Positions 252 to 5,287 of a DNA stretch of 5,287 bases are shown piece after piece. The notes beneath the pieces are model-generated. The model saw nothing but the letters and a program-made list of their open reading frames with translations, had not been told where the DNA came from and ran no database searches. Origin of the DNA: a virus (lineage: Duplodnaviria > Heunggongvirae > Uroviricota > Caudoviricetes); the IMG/VR virus record IMGVR_UViG_2693429774_000006; one strand, 5' to 3'. Position numbers and translations under genes: made by a program. The first letter of the stretch is position 1. Each line of letters opens with the position of its first letter.

Positions 252-761
252 TCACAGCAAACCAAATGAAGCACCGAGGCCAGTCACGGTATCAACTGCA
301 CTCGCCATCGCAGGATTAGCCTGTAAACGGGCCTGCAATGAAACAGCCGCCAGCGCCATCAGTCGTGTTACAGAATTAATGCTGCTGATAGCATCACGAC
401 GACCGGCACAGGTTTTTACATCGCCAGACACCGCACCTGCAGCAACACGCCCGATCTCTGCGGTTGCACTCATGACGTAATGTGGCAGTTTCTCTTTTGC
501 CACCTCATTAATCGGAACACATGGCAGACAATGAATCTGTGCCAGAAAACCGTCTACCAACGTTGAATCTTCAGTCAGATCGGTAAGCAACCAGATTTCT
601 GGTGCGGTGAGCTGATGCGGTTGATCTGGATTGAGTTTGTTTCGCAGTGTCTGAACATTCATTCCTGCACGTTCTGCCAGCTTTGCCATATTGTGACGTA
701 GTGCAAAAGCTCTACAGGCTTCATCAAAATGCGGATGTTTGGAAATCTTGTAATCAAACAT
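252..761 (-). CDS. cII: Phage CII-like transcriptional regulator (186 CII / CP76-type)
   Basis: 169-aa ORF with start preceded by AGGGGG about 6 nt upstream. Length matches 186 CII as I recall it (169 aa), and it sits immediately downstream of the Cox/Apl-like gene in a 186-type early operon. Family assignment is from memory, not a search. Confidence 0.75.
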   Translation of the reverse strand: MFDYKISKHPHFDEACRAFALRHNMAKLAERAGMNVQTLRNKLNPDQPHQLTAPEIWLLTDLTEDSTLVDGFLAQIHCLPCVPINEVAKEKLPHYVMSATAEIGRVAAGAVSGDVKTCAGRRDAISSINSVTRLMALAAVSLQARLQANPAMASAVDTVTGLGASFGLL

Positions 762-793: not shown

Positions 794-1042
794 TTAGTCA
801 CCAACGATGACATTAAAGTTGAAATTGGATTGGCCCATGTTTTTCCTGACTTGTTCCTTTTTGTACTCAAGGTAACGTATACATACTCTGTCTTTCGATT
901 TTTCTTTTCTTTCCAAGAATTTAGCGAGTTTACCATTATGAATCATTTGATATACCGAACCGCGAGAGCGGCCTTCCCATTCCGCGAACTCAGCTGGTGT
1001 CGCCATCACTTTTGGTACACGAATTGAAATGTCGTTGCTCAT
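794..1042 (-). CDS. Cox/Apl-like excisionase and early-promoter regulator (small HTH protein)
   Basis: 82-aa ORF. The segment VMATPAEFAEWEGRSRGSVYQMIHNGKLA resembles the P2 Cox N-terminal HTH region as I remember it (…AIPYQEFAKLIGKSTGAVRRMIDKGKLP…). It is divergently transcribed from the CI-like repressor and is the first gene of the rightward-type operon, as apl is in 186 and cox in P2. Confidence 0.7.
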   Translation of the reverse strand: MSNDISIRVPKVMATPAEFAEWEGRSRGSVYQMIHNGKLAKFLERKEKSKDRVCIRYLEYKKEQVRKNMGQSNFNFNVIVGD

Positions 1043-1161
1043 AGTGCAGTATCTCTCGATTAAGGTTTGGTTTACGTCGTTTTATCTTGTTTTATTTGAT
1101 TCAATATTTGATACACCAAGATACTACGATCCAATATTTGATACGTCAACAGGATTAAAAA
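1043..1161. promoter_or_regulatory. Divergent lysis/lysogeny switch region (pR/pL-type promoters and operators) between the Cox/Apl-like and CI-like genes
   Basis: 119-bp AT-rich intergenic region between divergent genes. It contains the 13-bp direct repeat CAATATTTGATAC at 1102..1114 and 1132..1144, and ATTTGAT also at 1094..1100. AGGA lies about 7 nt upstream of the cI ATG. Exact -35/-10 elements could not be assigned confidently by eye. Confidence 0.5.
1102..1144. repeat. Two copies of the 13-bp direct repeat CAATATTTGATAC, 30 bp centre to centre, in the switch region; candidate operator sites
   Basis: Exact match seen directly in the sequence at 1102..1114 and 1132..1144. Confidence 0.6.
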
Positions 1162-1794
1162 ATGATACAAGTAAAAGCTGGCGAGAATACAGGGGGAAGA
1201 GAGGCTATCCATAGGCTAATGGCAGCCTATGATTTCAAGTCCAGACAGCAACTTTGCGATCACTTGGGCGCATCAAAAAGCACTATGGCAAACAGATACT
1301 TAAGAGATAGTTTTCCTGCAGAATGGGTGATTCAGTGCGCTTTGGAAACAGGAGTTTCTTTACTGTGGCTAACTACCGGACAGGGCGATCCAGGTTCAAA
1401 CATTGACCCTAAAAAAAATATCAATTCCGTGAACTCTAGCAAAGTTAAACCTCTTTCGGAGCTTGTATCTCCTGAAATTGACAAGGCAACTCTCAACGGA
1501 GGTTTGCTGATCGATGCTGGAAAAGCAATCATTGATAGCAGCATACTCCCCTCAGACTCAAGCAACCTGCTGCTGGTGACTACTTCTGGTGATTCTTATT
1601 TAATAGATCGCAACCAAACACCACCAGTAAATGGTACGTGGTTAGTGGACATCGACGGGATAAAAAGCATTGTAAAATTGACACGACTCCCGGGAAACAG
1701 ATTAGTAGTGCATCAGGATGATTCATCGTTTGAGTGCGAACTGGATGACATTGAGGTAATAGGCCGCGCACTGAAAATCATTAAGAGCCTTTGA
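1162..1794 (+). CDS. cI: CI-type prophage repressor (186 CI-like N-terminal HTH domain, with an S24/LexA-like signature in the C-terminal part)
   Basis: 210-aa ORF. The N-terminal segment …RYLRDSFPAEWVIQCALETGVSLLWLTTGQG resembles the 186 CI HTH domain as I recall it. The C-terminal part contains GDSY (Ser145) and VKLTRLPGN (Lys172), resembling the Ser/Lys motifs of LexA and UmuD. Its stop TGA (1792..1794) lies 1 nt before the integrase ATG. Confidence 0.85.
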   Translation: MIQVKAGENTGGREAIHRLMAAYDFKSRQQLCDHLGASKSTMANRYLRDSFPAEWVIQCALETGVSLLWLTTGQGDPGSNIDPKKNINSVNSSKVKPLSELVSPEIDKATLNGGLLIDAGKAIIDSSILPSDSSNLLLVTTSGDSYLIDRNQTPPVNGTWLVDIDGIKSIVKLTRLPGNRLVVHQDDSSFECELDDIEVIGRALKIIKSL

Positions 1795-1795
1795 T

Positions 1796-2809
1796 ATGAC
1801 CATCAGAAAACAGCCGAACGGAAAGTGGTTATGTGAATGCTACCCAAACGGGCGAGATGGCAAACGCGTACGCAAACAATTTGCGACGAAAGGCGAAGCC
1901 ATTGCGTTTGAGAATTTCACCATGGACGAGGTAAACAAGAAACCTTGGCTGGGAGAAAAGGAAGATCGGCGACACCTATCAGAATTAATTGAGCTGTGGT
2001 ATTCCCTGTATGGTCAAACACTCGCAGACCCCAAGCGACTCATGGCGAAACTTGGAATTATCTGTAATGGTCTGGGCGATCCCATCGCTTCAGAGCTGAC
2101 TGCCGGTGACTTTACGAAATACCGCGAAGCACGGCTAAAAGGTGAAGTGCGAAATGAAGATGGCACGCTGATGTCGCCCGTTAAGCCCCGCACGGTAAAC
2201 CTTGAACAGCGCAATCTATCATCTGTGTTCGGTACATTAAAAAAACTAGGACACTGGTCAGCACCAAACCCGCTGGCAGGACTTCCGACCTTCAAAATTG
2301 CCGAAGGTGAGCTGGCTTTTCTTTCCACGGACGAAATCAAGCGCCTGTTGGCGGCATGTGCTGAATCTCAAAGCCCTAGCTTACTAATGATTGCAAAAAT
2401 ATGTCTGGCTACTGGCGCACGGTGGAGTGAAGCCGAAAATCTGCAGGGCCATCAAATATCGAAATACCGAATTACTTATACAAAAACAAAAGGCAAGAAA
2501 AACCGTACTGTGCCGATATCTCAGGATCTGTATGATGAACTCCCCAAAAACAGAGGAAAGTTATTCACGCCATGCAGAAAAGCCTTTGAGCGGGCAGTAA
2601 AGCGGGCCGGTATTGACCTACCGGAGGGCCAATGCACCCACGTGCTTCGCCATACATTCGCCAGTCACTTTATGATGAACGGCGGAAACATACTGGTACT
2701 GCGTGATATTTTGGGTCATGCCGATATAAAAATGACCATGATTTACGCCCACTTTTCGCCCGATCACCTTGAAGACGCGGTGACTAAAAATCCTCTTTAT
2801 AATTTGTAG
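1796..2809 (+). CDS. int: P2/186-family tyrosine integrase (site-specific recombinase)
   Basis: 337-aa ORF, the same length as P2 Int as I recall it. N-terminus MTIRKQPNGKWLCECYPNGRDGKRVRKQFATKGEAIAFE parallels P2 Int MAIKKLDDGRYEVDIRPTGRNGKRIRRKFDKKSEAVAFE. C-terminal catalytic signature is present: ATGARWSEA, HVLRHTFASHF (HxxR) and MIYAHF (Tyr nucleophile). Tightly coupled downstream of cI. Confidence 0.92.
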   Translation: MTIRKQPNGKWLCECYPNGRDGKRVRKQFATKGEAIAFENFTMDEVNKKPWLGEKEDRRHLSELIELWYSLYGQTLADPKRLMAKLGIICNGLGDPIASELTAGDFTKYREARLKGEVRNEDGTLMSPVKPRTVNLEQRNLSSVFGTLKKLGHWSAPNPLAGLPTFKIAEGELAFLSTDEIKRLLAACAESQSPSLLMIAKICLATGARWSEAENLQGHQISKYRITYTKTKGKKNRTVPISQDLYDELPKNRGKLFTPCRKAFERAVKRAGIDLPEGQCTHVLRHTFASHFMMNGGNILVLRDILGHADIKMTMIYAHFSPDHLEDAVTKNPLYNL

Positions 2810-2821
2810 TGGAGACCTATT

Positions 2822-4342
2822 GTGATTCAAAAATTAGATATTCAATCTGATGCGGTTGCAAAGTTAAGAATGGATGCTATTCGTTCAGAAATCCAAGGTT
2901 ATTCCCCTGATTTATTTATCGAATTCTGTATGCAATATAACTTACAAAAATTTGAAGATAATATCCACATGTTACGACACATGCCTTGGATTGTTAATTT
3001 ATGTCTAAAGTGGTCTGCGTCAGTAACTGGCAAGAATAAAAAATTCAAAATCCTCGATAAAAATCAAGCAATAAAACTCTTCCAAAAAACTTATGAAACC
3101 TTGAACATTATTCCTATCGGTCTTGAGAGGAAGAATGGCATGCATTTCTTCATTAGAAATAATCTATACCAACAAGGAATCTACCAGAAAATTGACGCTC
3201 TAAACACAATTAGCAGACAAGTCTTTCTATTTTCAGAACTTGAAAAAAACCATAAAATAAAGAAAAGTTTTTTTACTATCACGAATGTATCTATCGAAGA
3301 CTTTCTTAAGCTATCTTACATATTAATAACTCACATAACAGAAGAGCATCCCGTGAGAAAAATGAATGTAGATACATTTACTATATTATTTGACATCATT
3401 CCTAGAAATACCATTGAGAAATTTCTTGATGCAATATCAATAAATTACAATGAACTATCTACATTTTGCAAATCAAAAACCTATGATAAACCTTTGCTTG
3501 AATACTACTCATCATCACCTTTTCTTGAAAAACCATTAATAAAAAAAGGTTCAGAGTATTTTCAGATACACACACAACTGACTTCAACAAGCATACAGAC
3601 GTTCATATATGATCTTTTAAGAAGAACTGATGCCGAGAAGTTCATGGATAGCTTTGGAAATGTATTTGAAAATGCACTGGAATTAATACTAAAAGAAAGC
3701 GAAATTGATTTTCATAACGAAAAATACCTTAAAGAACGACTACCTAAAGATAATAAAGTAGTTGATTATTTCATTCCACATACTGAGGCAAATATTTTCA
3801 TTGATGCTAAAGGCGTTGAGATACACCAAAAAGGCATGGTAACATTACGCCCTGAGGATATTGCAGGAAAAATAAAGAAATCGGTATTAAAAGCAATCGA
3901 ACAATCTCACGAAGTTAATCGAGAAATATACTCTAATGAGCGAATAATAGCTCCATTCAGGGCTAACTCATATATCATTTGCATTACATATAAAAACCTT
4001 TTCTTAGGCAATGGTAGTATCCTAGCTAATACTTATGCTAAAGATGAGATGAATAAGATATATGACAAGTTTAAACATAACTATCATATCCCTACAGAGA
4101 ATATTTTTTGTCTATCATTTGAAGAGTTTGAATATCTCATTGCATCATGCAAAAGGTTTAAAATTCCGCCTCATGAAGTCTTGCAATCTGCAGTTGAAAA
4201 GAACAAAAAACCATCAAGTGCTGCTTTCCTATTTTCCCACCATATAGAGGACTATTTTGATAGAGTAGTCAATTCAGTCATAGTCAATGAGGCAGGCATT
4301 AAAATGGTAGATTCTATTATCAATAAATTAAAGCCTGAATAA
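2822..4342 (+). CDS. Large hypothetical cargo protein (506 aa) between the integrase and the attachment site; candidate defence or lysogenic-conversion protein with a putative PD-(D/E)xK-like nuclease motif
   Basis: Uninterrupted 1521-nt ORF with GTG start at 2822 and GGAG at 2811..2814; it begins 12 nt after the integrase stop. Strongly AT-rich: hand counts of sampled 60-nt lines give about 23-35% G+C, against about 62% in a sampled integrase line. The AT richness makes long chance ORFs unlikely, since random AT-rich sequence is stop-codon-rich. Motif E283 (FENALELIL), D315 (VVDYFIP) and D328-A-K330 (IFIDAKG) has PD-(D/E)xK-like spacing. No Walker A motif and no family I recognise. Confidence 0.85.
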   Translation: MIQKLDIQSDAVAKLRMDAIRSEIQGYSPDLFIEFCMQYNLQKFEDNIHMLRHMPWIVNLCLKWSASVTGKNKKFKILDKNQAIKLFQKTYETLNIIPIGLERKNGMHFFIRNNLYQQGIYQKIDALNTISRQVFLFSELEKNHKIKKSFFTITNVSIEDFLKLSYILITHITEEHPVRKMNVDTFTILFDIIPRNTIEKFLDAISINYNELSTFCKSKTYDKPLLEYYSSSPFLEKPLIKKGSEYFQIHTQLTSTSIQTFIYDLLRRTDAEKFMDSFGNVFENALELILKESEIDFHNEKYLKERLPKDNKVVDYFIPHTEANIFIDAKGVEIHQKGMVTLRPEDIAGKIKKSVLKAIEQSHEVNREIYSNERIIAPFRANSYIICITYKNLFLGNGSILANTYAKDEMNKIYDKFKHNYHIPTENIFCLSFEEFEYLIASCKRFKIPPHEVLQSAVEKNKKPSSAAFLFSHHIEDYFDRVVNSVIVNEAGIKMVDSIINKLKPE

Positions 4343-4474
4343 GTCTCCCAAGCAAAACCAGTGGCGGCATTTTGGCGGCAGAGCATTAAAAATGCGTAAA
4401 ACAGACAAACACAAAATAATACTAACACACTGATTTTAAACATAAGTTCATGTTTTTGTTATAGTAAAAATGGT

Positions 4475-4519
4475 ATGTAGGAATTTCGGACGCGGGTTCA
4501 ACTCCCGCCAGCTCCACCA
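4475..4519 (+). other. Partial copy of the 3-prime end of tmRNA (ssrA), about 45 nt ending in CCA; att core repeat at the prophage/island junction
   Basis: ATGTAGGAATTTCGGACGCGGGTTCAACTCCCGCCAGCTCCACCA matches the 3-prime terminus (T-arm and acceptor stem) of enterobacterial ssrA as I recall it. Sequence upstream of 4475 has no resemblance to the 5-prime part of ssrA, so this is a fragment, not a full gene. Confidence 0.8.
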
Positions 4520-4554
4520 ATTTTTGATATATTGAAGTTCAGTGAAGTCTATCA

Positions 4555-4587
4555 AGCCCGCATGGAACCAGCCTTGCGGGCTTTTTT
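4555..4587 (+). terminator. Rho-independent terminator-like hairpin with T-run, downstream of the ssrA 3-prime fragment
   Basis: AGCCCGCA (4555..4562) pairs perfectly with TGCGGGCT (4575..4582) across a 12-nt loop, followed by TTTTTT (4582..4587). Confidence 0.6.
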
Positions 4588-4641
4588 ACGTCTATAGTAG
4601 TCTACCGAGAATTGCTAGAATCTACTCGTTATGGCACCCTT

Positions 4642-4688
4642 TTTGGGACCCAACACAAAGGGTCCAAAACATGAGGGTCCCAAACATG
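4642..4688. repeat. 10-bp perfect inverted repeat (TTTGGGACCC at 4642..4651 and GGGTCCCAAA at 4675..4684) plus a 15-bp tandem imperfect repeat (4659..4673 and 4674..4688) overlapping the P4-type integrase start
   Basis: Seen directly in the sequence. The tandem units AGGGTCCAAAACATG and AGGGTCCCAAACATG differ at one position and each ends in an in-frame ATG. Confidence 0.6.
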
Positions 4689-5258
4689 GCAAAAATCGCT
4701 AAGAAGCTCACTGACACTGAAATCAAAAGCACCAAACCTGCCGAGAAAGAGGTTAACCTTTTTGACGGCGATGGTTTGCTCCTGCGAATCGCCCCCTTAG
4801 CGAAGGGAGGAAAGAAAAATTGGTATTTCAGATATGCAGTGCCTGTGACCAAAAAGCGAACTAAGGTGAGCTTAGGAACCTATCCTCACCTTACACTTGC
4901 GAAGGCACGAGCTTTACGTGATGAGTACTTGTCGTTGCTTGCAAATGGTATAGACCCACAAGTTCATAACACCCACAAAGCCAATGCCCTTAAGGATGCA
5001 ACGGAACATACATTTCAAGCAGTAGCCAAGAAGTGGCTTGATGAGAAAGTCAAAACGTCAGGCATCTCCCAGGATCATGCTAACGACATCTGGCGAAGCC
5101 TAGAGAGAAATATCTTTCCAACGTTGGGTGATACCCCCATTAAGGAGATTCGCCCTAAAATGCTTAAACAGCATTTAGACCCCATAGAAAAACGAGGTGT
5201 CCTTGAAACACTTCGCCGCGTCATTGATCCTACCCACGTAATATGGACACAGGCCTAA
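4686..5258 (+). CDS. P4-type (CP4-57 IntA-like) integrase, N-terminal arm-type DNA-binding and SAM-like region only; apparently truncated
   Basis: Translation from the ATG at 4686 (MAKIAKKLTDTEIKSTKPAEKEVNLFDGDGLLLRIAP…WYFRYAVPVTKKRTKVSLGTYP…DIWRSLERNIFP…) matches the conserved N-terminal pattern of P4-family integrases as I recall them. Start is preceded by GAGGG; an alternative in-frame ATG lies at 4671. The frame ends at a stop at 5256..5258 after about 190 codons, and the other two forward frames also hit stops nearby. The longer 4542 start in the track runs across the terminator and is rejected. Confidence 0.7.
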   Translation: MAKIAKKLTDTEIKSTKPAEKEVNLFDGDGLLLRIAPLAKGGKKNWYFRYAVPVTKKRTKVSLGTYPHLTLAKARALRDEYLSLLANGIDPQVHNTHKANALKDATEHTFQAVAKKWLDEKVKTSGISQDHANDIWRSLERNIFPTLGDTPIKEIRPKMLKQHLDPIEKRGVLETLRRVIDPTHVIWTQA

Positions 5259-5287
5259 GCGAGGTTCTTGTTTTCAAATTGTTCCGG

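Follow-up and report, generated by a model that had tools for sequence, protein, structure and literature searches.

We have analysed a stretch of DNA of 5,287 nucleotides (nt) from the IMG/VR virus record IMGVR_UViG_2693429774_000006 (Caudoviricetes), which we call the window; all coordinates are window positions, position 1 being its first letter, and those of the features are collected in Table 1. Three genes lie in the window head to tail on one strand: cI, for an immunity repressor of the type found in phage 186, int, for a tyrosine integrase, and gapS1, a third gene or cargo whose product is described below. The junctions between them are tight. The TGA stop of cI (1792-1794) is followed after 1 nt by the ATG of int (1796), and the TAG stop of int (2807-2809) after 12 nt by the GTG of gapS1 (2822), distances that a preliminary description of the locus had given exactly, as the list of open reading frames (ORFs) and the sequence confirm. 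The same description had seen no terminator-like hairpin between int and the cargo, and this was borne out: a scan of the plus strand from 1162 to 4342 found no terminator-like site, and the RNA fold of 2740-2860, which spans the int-gapS1 junction, is as stable as that of shuffled sequence (z = -0.07). A Shine-Dalgarno sequence, GGAG, is found at 2811-2814, 7 nt upstream of the GTG. Because the 16 N-terminal residues of GapS1 are conserved in homologues without the internal Met17, the upstream GTG at 2822, and not the ATG at 2870, is the real start; the same GTG start has been annotated by NCBI PGAP in Escherichia coli E308.

The minus strand of the left half of the window carries the genes of Fil, CII (CP76) and an Apl/Cox-like excisionase (Pfam, PHROGs), and cI-int runs divergently from them. 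By homology, this half of the window is a 186-type switch. Its Int is 54% identical to Int of 186 and its CI 32% identical to CI of 186, and this low identity of CI means that the immunity type is a different one. At the boundary between int and gapS1 the G+C content drops abruptly, from ~48% in int to ~31% in gapS1. The 1.5-kb gapS1 frame, at this low G+C, is conserved in hundreds of genomes, and it is intact and 99-100% conserved among E. coli, Klebsiella and Enterobacter.

The protein encoded by gapS1 matches the NCBIfam model NF047931 (antiphage_GapS1) over residues 20-474 of its 506, with an E value of 3e-128 and 428.5 bits against a cut-off of 320. It is also matched by PHROGs, and searches of Pfam and PADLOC v2 returned no match. 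The orthologue in E. coli E308 has been named gapS1 by PGAP, and the RefSeq name is likewise gapS1. In an alignment of 18 homologues, reaching down to 28% identity, residues D315, D328, K330 and E333 are invariant. The spacing of 15 between D315 and K330 is that between D313 and K328 of Vibrio GAPS1, in which alanine substitution of either D313 or K328 abolishes defence (Mahata et al., bioRxiv 10.1101/2023.03.28.534373). The best structural matches of the cargo protein are restriction or nicking endonucleases, in keeping with a restriction-endonuclease fold, and a search at the sequence level detected no solved relative. On the basis of these matches, the cargo is assigned to the GapS1 family of anti-phage PD-(D/E)xK nucleases. 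In Vibrio, GAPS1 is triggered by the T7 capsid protein Gp10, which leads to growth arrest (bioRxiv 10.1101/2023.03.28.534373).

The limits of the exchangeable DNA at this locus were defined by alignment with relatives that carry no cargo or another cargo. Homology is lost after the residues T-K-N-P of Int (...ACnAAAAAyCC, ~2795) and is regained at the first TGGCGGCA repeat (~4355), so that the exchangeable unit consists of the tail and stop codon of int, 12 nt, the ORF and a further 12 nt. As the cassette leaves 12 nt on either side of its ORF, there is no room in it for a promoter or a terminator of its own. Its boundaries were also examined for attC-like or target-duplication repeats, and none were seen.

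Our survey of this slot between int and the attachment site covered 80 IMG/VR loci with Int 91-100% identical and was extended by 75 more distant Int relatives. In 49 of the 80 loci, an ORF on the same strand starts at most 30 nt from the int stop, and in 17 the slot is empty. Opposite-strand cargo is present in five loci, and three have a same-strand ORF farther off, two of them (L140 and L164) with transposase-like ORFs in the cargo space. About eight cargo families account for the filled slots of the 80 loci and more are present in the distant relatives; taking both groups together, ~20 unrelated families lie on the int strand within -45 to +30 nt of the int stop. Several independent cassettes have a start codon that overlaps the int stop (ATGA or TAATG), an overlap typical of translational coupling. 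The sole clear opposite-strand family is an anti-phage dCTP deaminase; its start codon lies ~100 nt away from the arm sites, and the leader in between holds a TGnTATAAC-like element. Since a leader of ~100 nt is found with the dCTP deaminase only, it appears that cargo unable to use read-through brings a leader with it and that same-strand cargo brings none. The slot contents of close and distant relatives include GapS1, dCTP deaminase, HNH, SMEK, an Old-like ATPase-TOPRIM, PDC-S49 and a HEPN-like protein; the int-att slot of P2-like phages is a place with conserved flanks, variable and often defence-related content, and empty alleles. Because the relatives with an empty slot keep cI, int and att intact, gapS1 is dispensable for integration. 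The gene arrangement exceeds what chance would give, as a long AT-rich frame is widely kept and the tight same-strand junction recurs with ~20 unrelated families.

In the curated record of phage 186, pL, pE, cI, int, orf69, the arm-type Int sites and attP are annotated, together with a "predicted terminator of lysogenic operon" beyond attP. This matches what the preliminary description had said of 186-type phages, namely that cI and int are transcribed from the lysogenic promoter pL, and orf69 belongs to the same operon. In 186, orf69 starts 14 nt past int, with a GGAGG within those 14 nt, and attP lies inside a tRNA 3' fragment. The promoters pR and pL form a face-to-face pair in that phage (PMC7498355), and an int::lacZ fusion has been used as a reporter of its leftward (lysogenic) transcription (PMC7708051). 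Transcription of the genes for repressor and integrase has been seen under all conditions examined in BTP5, a 186-like prophage (PMC7067206). The window has the corresponding elements. Its pL homologue is placed relative to the apl ATG as pL is in 186 (TTGCGA, 17 nt, CATGAT), and the block around it is conserved in phage Cartapus and in loci L002 and L097, where the operator region diverges. We identified pL from its position, by comparison with the annotated promoters of 186, and not through a consensus scan, which missed it; that scan performed at chance level, with 13 sites against 12 expected. All three assignments, pL, pR and pE, were made by position and sequence homology to 186, and we treat them as putative promoters. 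The two 22-nt direct repeats that cover pR are probably the CI operators of the window's own immunity type. Past pL, the first strong terminator on the plus strand is that of ssrA, as located by scan and fold.

Beyond the cassette, the first conserved phage DNA consists of the two TGGCGGCA repeats. Phage 186 has the same motif at the same position past orf69, with an annotation as Int arm-type sites, and the repeats are conserved in all relatives; we regard them as putative arm sites resembling those bound by Int. The attR core that follows is a displaced 3' fragment of ssrA, the gene of transfer-messenger RNA (tmRNA). It was detected by Rfam at a relaxed threshold only, and ARAGORN called no tRNA or tmRNA gene in the window. 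Deposited Klebsiella phage records end at 4474. E. coli E308 carries a complete 34.5-kb 186/P2-like prophage that has the same sequence as its right end and abuts an intact ssrA-smpB at its other end. Because the phage records end at 4474 and the E308 prophage ends at a complete ssrA, the cargo is phage DNA lying between int and attR; IMG/VR viral contigs also include gapS1. An intact ~34.5-kb prophage of the 186/Fels-2 type (P2-like), inserted in the 3' end of ssrA, has its immunity and integration end in the window, and by analogy with 186 the operon of the prophage probably ends at the native ssrA terminator.

Table 1. Features of the window and their coordinates.
Feature	Position	Strand	Description
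CII half-sites at pE	735..761 (ATGTTTG 735-741; CAAACAT 755-761)	+	Near-identical to the annotated 186 CII site and pE; reads toward cI-int-gapS1
pL homologue (putative)	1024..1052	+	TTGAAA, 17 nt, CAGTAT; straddles the apl start codon
22-nt direct repeat, GATTCAATATTTGATACACCAA and GATCCAATATTTGATACGTCAA (probable CI operators)	1098-1119, 1128-1149		Spaced 30 nt; covers the -10 and -35 of pR
pR homologue (putative)	1121..1149	-	TTGACG, 17 nt, TAGTAT; face to face with pL; from promoter scan and 186 annotation
cI	1162..1794	+	210 amino acids (aa), 186-type immunity repressor; Pfam Phage_CI_repr (6e-31), Phage_CI_C (5e-28)
int	1796..2809	+	337-aa tyrosine integrase; Pfam Int_N and Phage_integrase; targets the ssrA 3' end
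Exchangeable cassette	2796..4354	+	Last ~4 int codons and stop, 12 nt with GGAG, gapS1, 12-nt trailer
gapS1	2822..4342	+	506 aa, GTG start; single-protein anti-phage PD-(D/E)xK nuclease
GapS1 catalytic codons	D315 3764-3766; D328 3803-3805; K330 3809-3811	+	D328-x-K330 motif
Int arm-type-like repeats TGGCGGCA, two copies	4362..4380	+	Spaced 11 nt; first conserved phage DNA past the cassette
attR core	4475..4519	+	Displaced ssrA (tmRNA) 3' fragment ending in CCA; partial Rfam tmRNA match, E 1.4e-9
Native ssrA intrinsic terminator	4554..4588	+	From terminator scan; stable hairpin and T-run in the fold

Published experiments can be tied to this locus. Three E. coli homologues of GAPS1 have been tested from plasmids, and the native homologue of strain ZH142-A has been deleted (Mahata et al., bioRxiv 10.1101/2023.03.28.534373). 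Our comparison with these homologues rests on the partial gene sequences of the supplement of that study (bioRxiv 10.1101/2023.03.28.534373), in which a search for the accessions of the cargo protein gave no match. Two of the tested proteins, 58% and 77% identical to the cargo, protect as single genes without a methylase. In L111, L113 and L115, a gene that begins 8 nt past the int stop shows 100% identity over 380 nt to that of the tested homologue EJP5250929.1, and the gene of L159 shows 98.7% identity to another, WP_152927281.1. For the deletion in ZH142-A, primer TM644F has a 50-nt homology arm whose reverse complement is identical to positions 4343-4392, and among 184 loci compared this arm is present only in those with a gapS1 allele at least 99% identical. 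As the arm matches exactly and is confined to such alleles, the ZH142-A gene is very probably the window allele at the same locus. Supplementary Table S5 gives TM644F and TM644R as one and the same sequence, so that only the 3' homology arm is legible. Deletion of the native gene in ZH142-A led to the loss of protection against Bas21 on plates without inducer (bioRxiv 10.1101/2023.03.28.534373). Since the native deletion abolished defence without inducer, the locus is expressed in lysogens.

Taken together, gapS1 is a single-gene defence cassette in the position of third gene of the lysogenic operon, where 186 has orf69. Its co-transcription from pL and pE is strongly supported by the comparative evidence, and read-through from these two promoters is, in our judgement, likely to be the main route of its expression. 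In a lysogen, CI would repress the opposing pR, pL would be active as a result, and transcription would start there; during the establishment of lysogeny, it would also start at CII-activated pE. The transcript would then pass through cI, int, gapS1, the Int arm sites and the attR core, and would stop at the host ssrA terminator, the cargo being translated from its own GGAG-N7-GTG site 12 nt past the int stop. By analogy with the homologues, the capsid protein of an incoming phage would trigger GapS1, growth would stop and the infection would be aborted, which would protect the lysogen population and the prophage. The preliminary description had already placed the cargo under a promoter active in the prophage, a placement that the 186 layout, the limits of the cassette and the ~20 same-strand families support at the level of sequence, and it had expected the gene to benefit the lysogen, for instance by superinfection defence, which agrees with the GapS1 family and with the loss of defence in the ZH142-A deletion without inducer. 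What it lacked was the name of the family, the recurrence of the hotspot, and the end of the unit at attR and the host ssrA terminator.

Several points weigh against read-through as the main route. The -10 of the pL homologue is poor (CAGTAT, 3/6), and the consensus scan passed this promoter over. A promoter-like site in int (2647-2676) could supply some or all of the transcription of gapS1, and the coding constraint on it masks the test. H-NS or Rho could attenuate read-through into a cargo of ~31% G+C. The IMG/VR loci of the survey are not independent samples and their ORFs were called mechanically. Finally, we infer the use of the promoters at this locus, and we infer the identity of the int-gapS1 junction in ZH142-A from the 3' arm.

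The site in int is the basis of the best alternative, which we nevertheless consider unlikely: a constitutive promoter within the 3' third of int, such as 2647-2676 with a start near 2684, would account for most of the transcription of gapS1, independently of CI and pL, and the tight junction would simply reflect compact packing beside attP. The site (TCGCCA, 18 nt, TATGAT) scores 9/12, lies 140 nt upstream of the gapS1 GTG and has a -10 that is kept in nearly all relatives, and the native expression in ZH142-A is compatible with any promoter. However, the same nucleotides encode the conserved catalytic motif LRHTFASHFMM of Int, and the -35 drifts at synonymous positions, down to 3/6. A comparison of three groups of loci, those with cargo on the int strand, those with cargo on the other strand and the 17 that are empty, showed no difference in the site, which scores 8-9/12 in filled and empty loci alike. 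The site is not specific to the cargo, although it may act as a weak cryptic promoter, and promoter-like matches in the window occur at chance frequency. In addition, the stop/start overlaps of other cargo with int favour a coupling to int translation, and a leader accompanies opposite-strand cargo and never same-strand cargo. These last two observations speak for read-through from pL and pE over an internal promoter.

The ORF could also be no phage cargo at all, but part of an island linked to ssrA, or an acquired gene that is silenced or decaying and has no role for the lysogen. Its AT-richness with the abrupt drop in G+C, and the adjoining second integrase, of P4 type and interrupted by an IS3 end, would fit such an origin. 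We hold it to be very improbable, as the gene is on the phage side of the attR core, is part of IMG/VR viral contigs and of deposited phage and prophage records, the latter ending at 4474, has an intact frame that is 99-100% conserved in E. coli, Klebsiella and Enterobacter, and, when deleted at the identical locus, takes defence with it. Least probable of all is that the protein has another function, as a conventional restriction endonuclease or a phage integration/excision factor, since its structural matches to restriction or nicking endonucleases and the absence of a Pfam or PADLOC v2 match stand against a full-length match to the GapS1 model well above cut-off and against homologues at 58% and 77% identity that protect singly and without a methylase.

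Around attR, a few further elements can be described. Beside it lies a P4/CP4-57-type integrase gene (4686-5224), which is broken off after 190 codons by an apparent end of an IS3-family element (5225-5287); genomes without this insertion align only to 5224, and the alignment extends to 5287 in one genome that has an annotated IS3 transposase. We considered and rejected an assignment of the cargo to this adjacent P4-type island, as the cargo is on the phage side of attR. In the phage arm, a promoter-like site on the plus strand at 4437-4465 (TAAACA, 17 nt, TATAGT, with a TG) is aimed at the ssrA 3' fragment, and its equivalent in L122 (9969-9998) matches at 11/12 (TTGAAA, 18 nt, TATAAT). This site might drive a short RNA across attR, and Rfam gives a weak partial match to IsrM at 4444-4587. 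The E308 prophage (L185) has a second accessory gene, at 12373-14025, for a protein with a P-loop NTPase fold; this gene is flanked by the replication gene region and the portal gene, the location of the classical P2 hotspot.

The survey also gave a view of the other contents of the slot. Its two commonest cargo families are phrog_7835, ~400 aa and called "RES" in phage Cartapus, found in 24 loci (e.g. L108, L133, L167 and L006), and phrog_17460, a multi-pass membrane protein of ~350 aa, found in 16-17 loci (e.g. L142, L170 and L132). No match to either was obtained in Pfam, NCBIfam or PADLOC, and we consider both to be candidate uncharacterised defence genes. In L176 and L179, the DNA past int carries on the same strand a dCTP-deaminase/dUTPase-like gene, the product of which has a C-terminal membrane segment, and a gene for the thymidylate synthase ThyX; this pair may be a defence or counter-defence module based on nucleotide pools. 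In L099-L104 and L152, ~1.1 kb separates the int stop from gapS1: the int stop overlaps (ATGA) with a gene for a phrog_17460-type protein, past which lies a gapS1 variant of 70-78% identity, all genes being on one strand. From these stacked loci, in which a transmembrane protein precedes gapS1, cassettes appear to be able to accumulate in series. Behind integrases that are ~94% identical, with the same arm sites and ssrA core, GapS1 alleles are only 49-78% identical (L007, L097, L111-L118 and L159). As read from these alignments, the gapS1 cargo itself diverges, or is exchanged, at a much higher rate than the DNA on either side.

We would advance a broader idea only tentatively, as one that is more doubtful than not: that the stretch from int codon ~333 to the first Int arm site of 186/Fels-2-type phages is a dedicated, integron-like platform for promoter-less defence cassettes. 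Unrelated defences of one or two genes would be swapped in together with a new C-terminal tail of int and would be stackable, as with the transmembrane protein and gapS1; they would depend on pL and pE, be wired to the CI switch, be on while lysogeny is established and maintained and be shut off when pR fires on induction, and phrog_7835 and phrog_17460 would be uncharacterised defence genes. If this were true, the shut-off could keep a GapS1 that is triggered by capsid protein from sabotaging the lytic cycle of its own prophage.

In itself, the gapS1 unit is an ordinary prophage defence moron, of which the gene family, the hotspot and the name are already known. Our modest addition is that the defence cargo is structurally fused to cI-int and that a strong rule of orientation applies at the int-att hotspot. 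Several predictions follow from transcription through cI and int: the level of defence would track CI autoregulation, CII would induce defence while lysogeny is being established, and new transcription of gapS1 would stop on induction of the prophage. The arrangement also provides a rule for finding new defence genes, as ORFs that abut int on the same strand in 186-like prophages, and two abundant families of no known function fit it. Cloning such genes "with native promoter" would be expected to fail unless cI-int or a surrogate promoter is supplied.

It is useful to compare this locus with known systems. The likeness to integron cassettes is one of analogy only: in both cases promoter-less, single-ORF, exchangeable cassettes lie beside a tyrosine-recombinase gene and its site and depend on a resident promoter upstream. 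Unlike in integrons, no attC-like repeats were found at the boundaries here, and the recombinase gene is co-directional and upstream. The GAPS1 of Vibrio parahaemolyticus VPaI-6 resembles the protein of the window in being a single protein of ~500 aa with a C-terminal PD-(D/E)xK motif and a D-to-K spacing of 15. The difference is that it is the cargo of a GMT island there, and here the gene is fused to cI-int in a 186-type prophage; a term search of the main text of that study did not find the word prophage (bioRxiv 10.1101/2023.03.28.534373). As for the slot, an int-att defence hotspot has been described in P2-like prophages, with 3% of the P2 systems (NAR 2026, PMC13586616), and the slot that holds gapS1 here is the same one. 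The passages of PMC13586616 that we searched do not treat the orientation of the cargo, the cassette boundaries or transcription at int-att. We also compared the int-att slot with the P2 and P4 hotspots of Rousset et al. 2022 (PMC9122126), in which a hotspot between cI and int is reported for K139-like phages.

The closest parallel to the operon is that of phage 186 itself. The two have in common the gene order, the divergent apl-cII-fil, pR and pL face to face and pE with CII half-sites (putative promoters in the window), the near-touching cI and int, a third ORF 12-14 nt past int with a Shine-Dalgarno sequence, arm-type TGGCG repeats, the 3' fragment of a tRNA or tmRNA, and a terminator. They differ in the third gene, which is a 506-aa defence nuclease here and the 83-aa orf69, without a PHROG match, in 186; in the att site, ssrA here and ileY in 186; and in CI, with 32% identity.

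In phage lambda, cI, rexA and rexB are co-transcribed from pRM, so that defence genes ride on the repressor transcript, and in K139 the glo gene is located next to cI and int. These phages belong to other lineages and their proteins are different ones, and in the window the gene lies past int, at the end of the operon and beside att. What they share with the locus described here is the principle of an exclusion or abortive-infection gene that is carried on the transcript maintaining lysogeny, and is on when the prophage needs protection.

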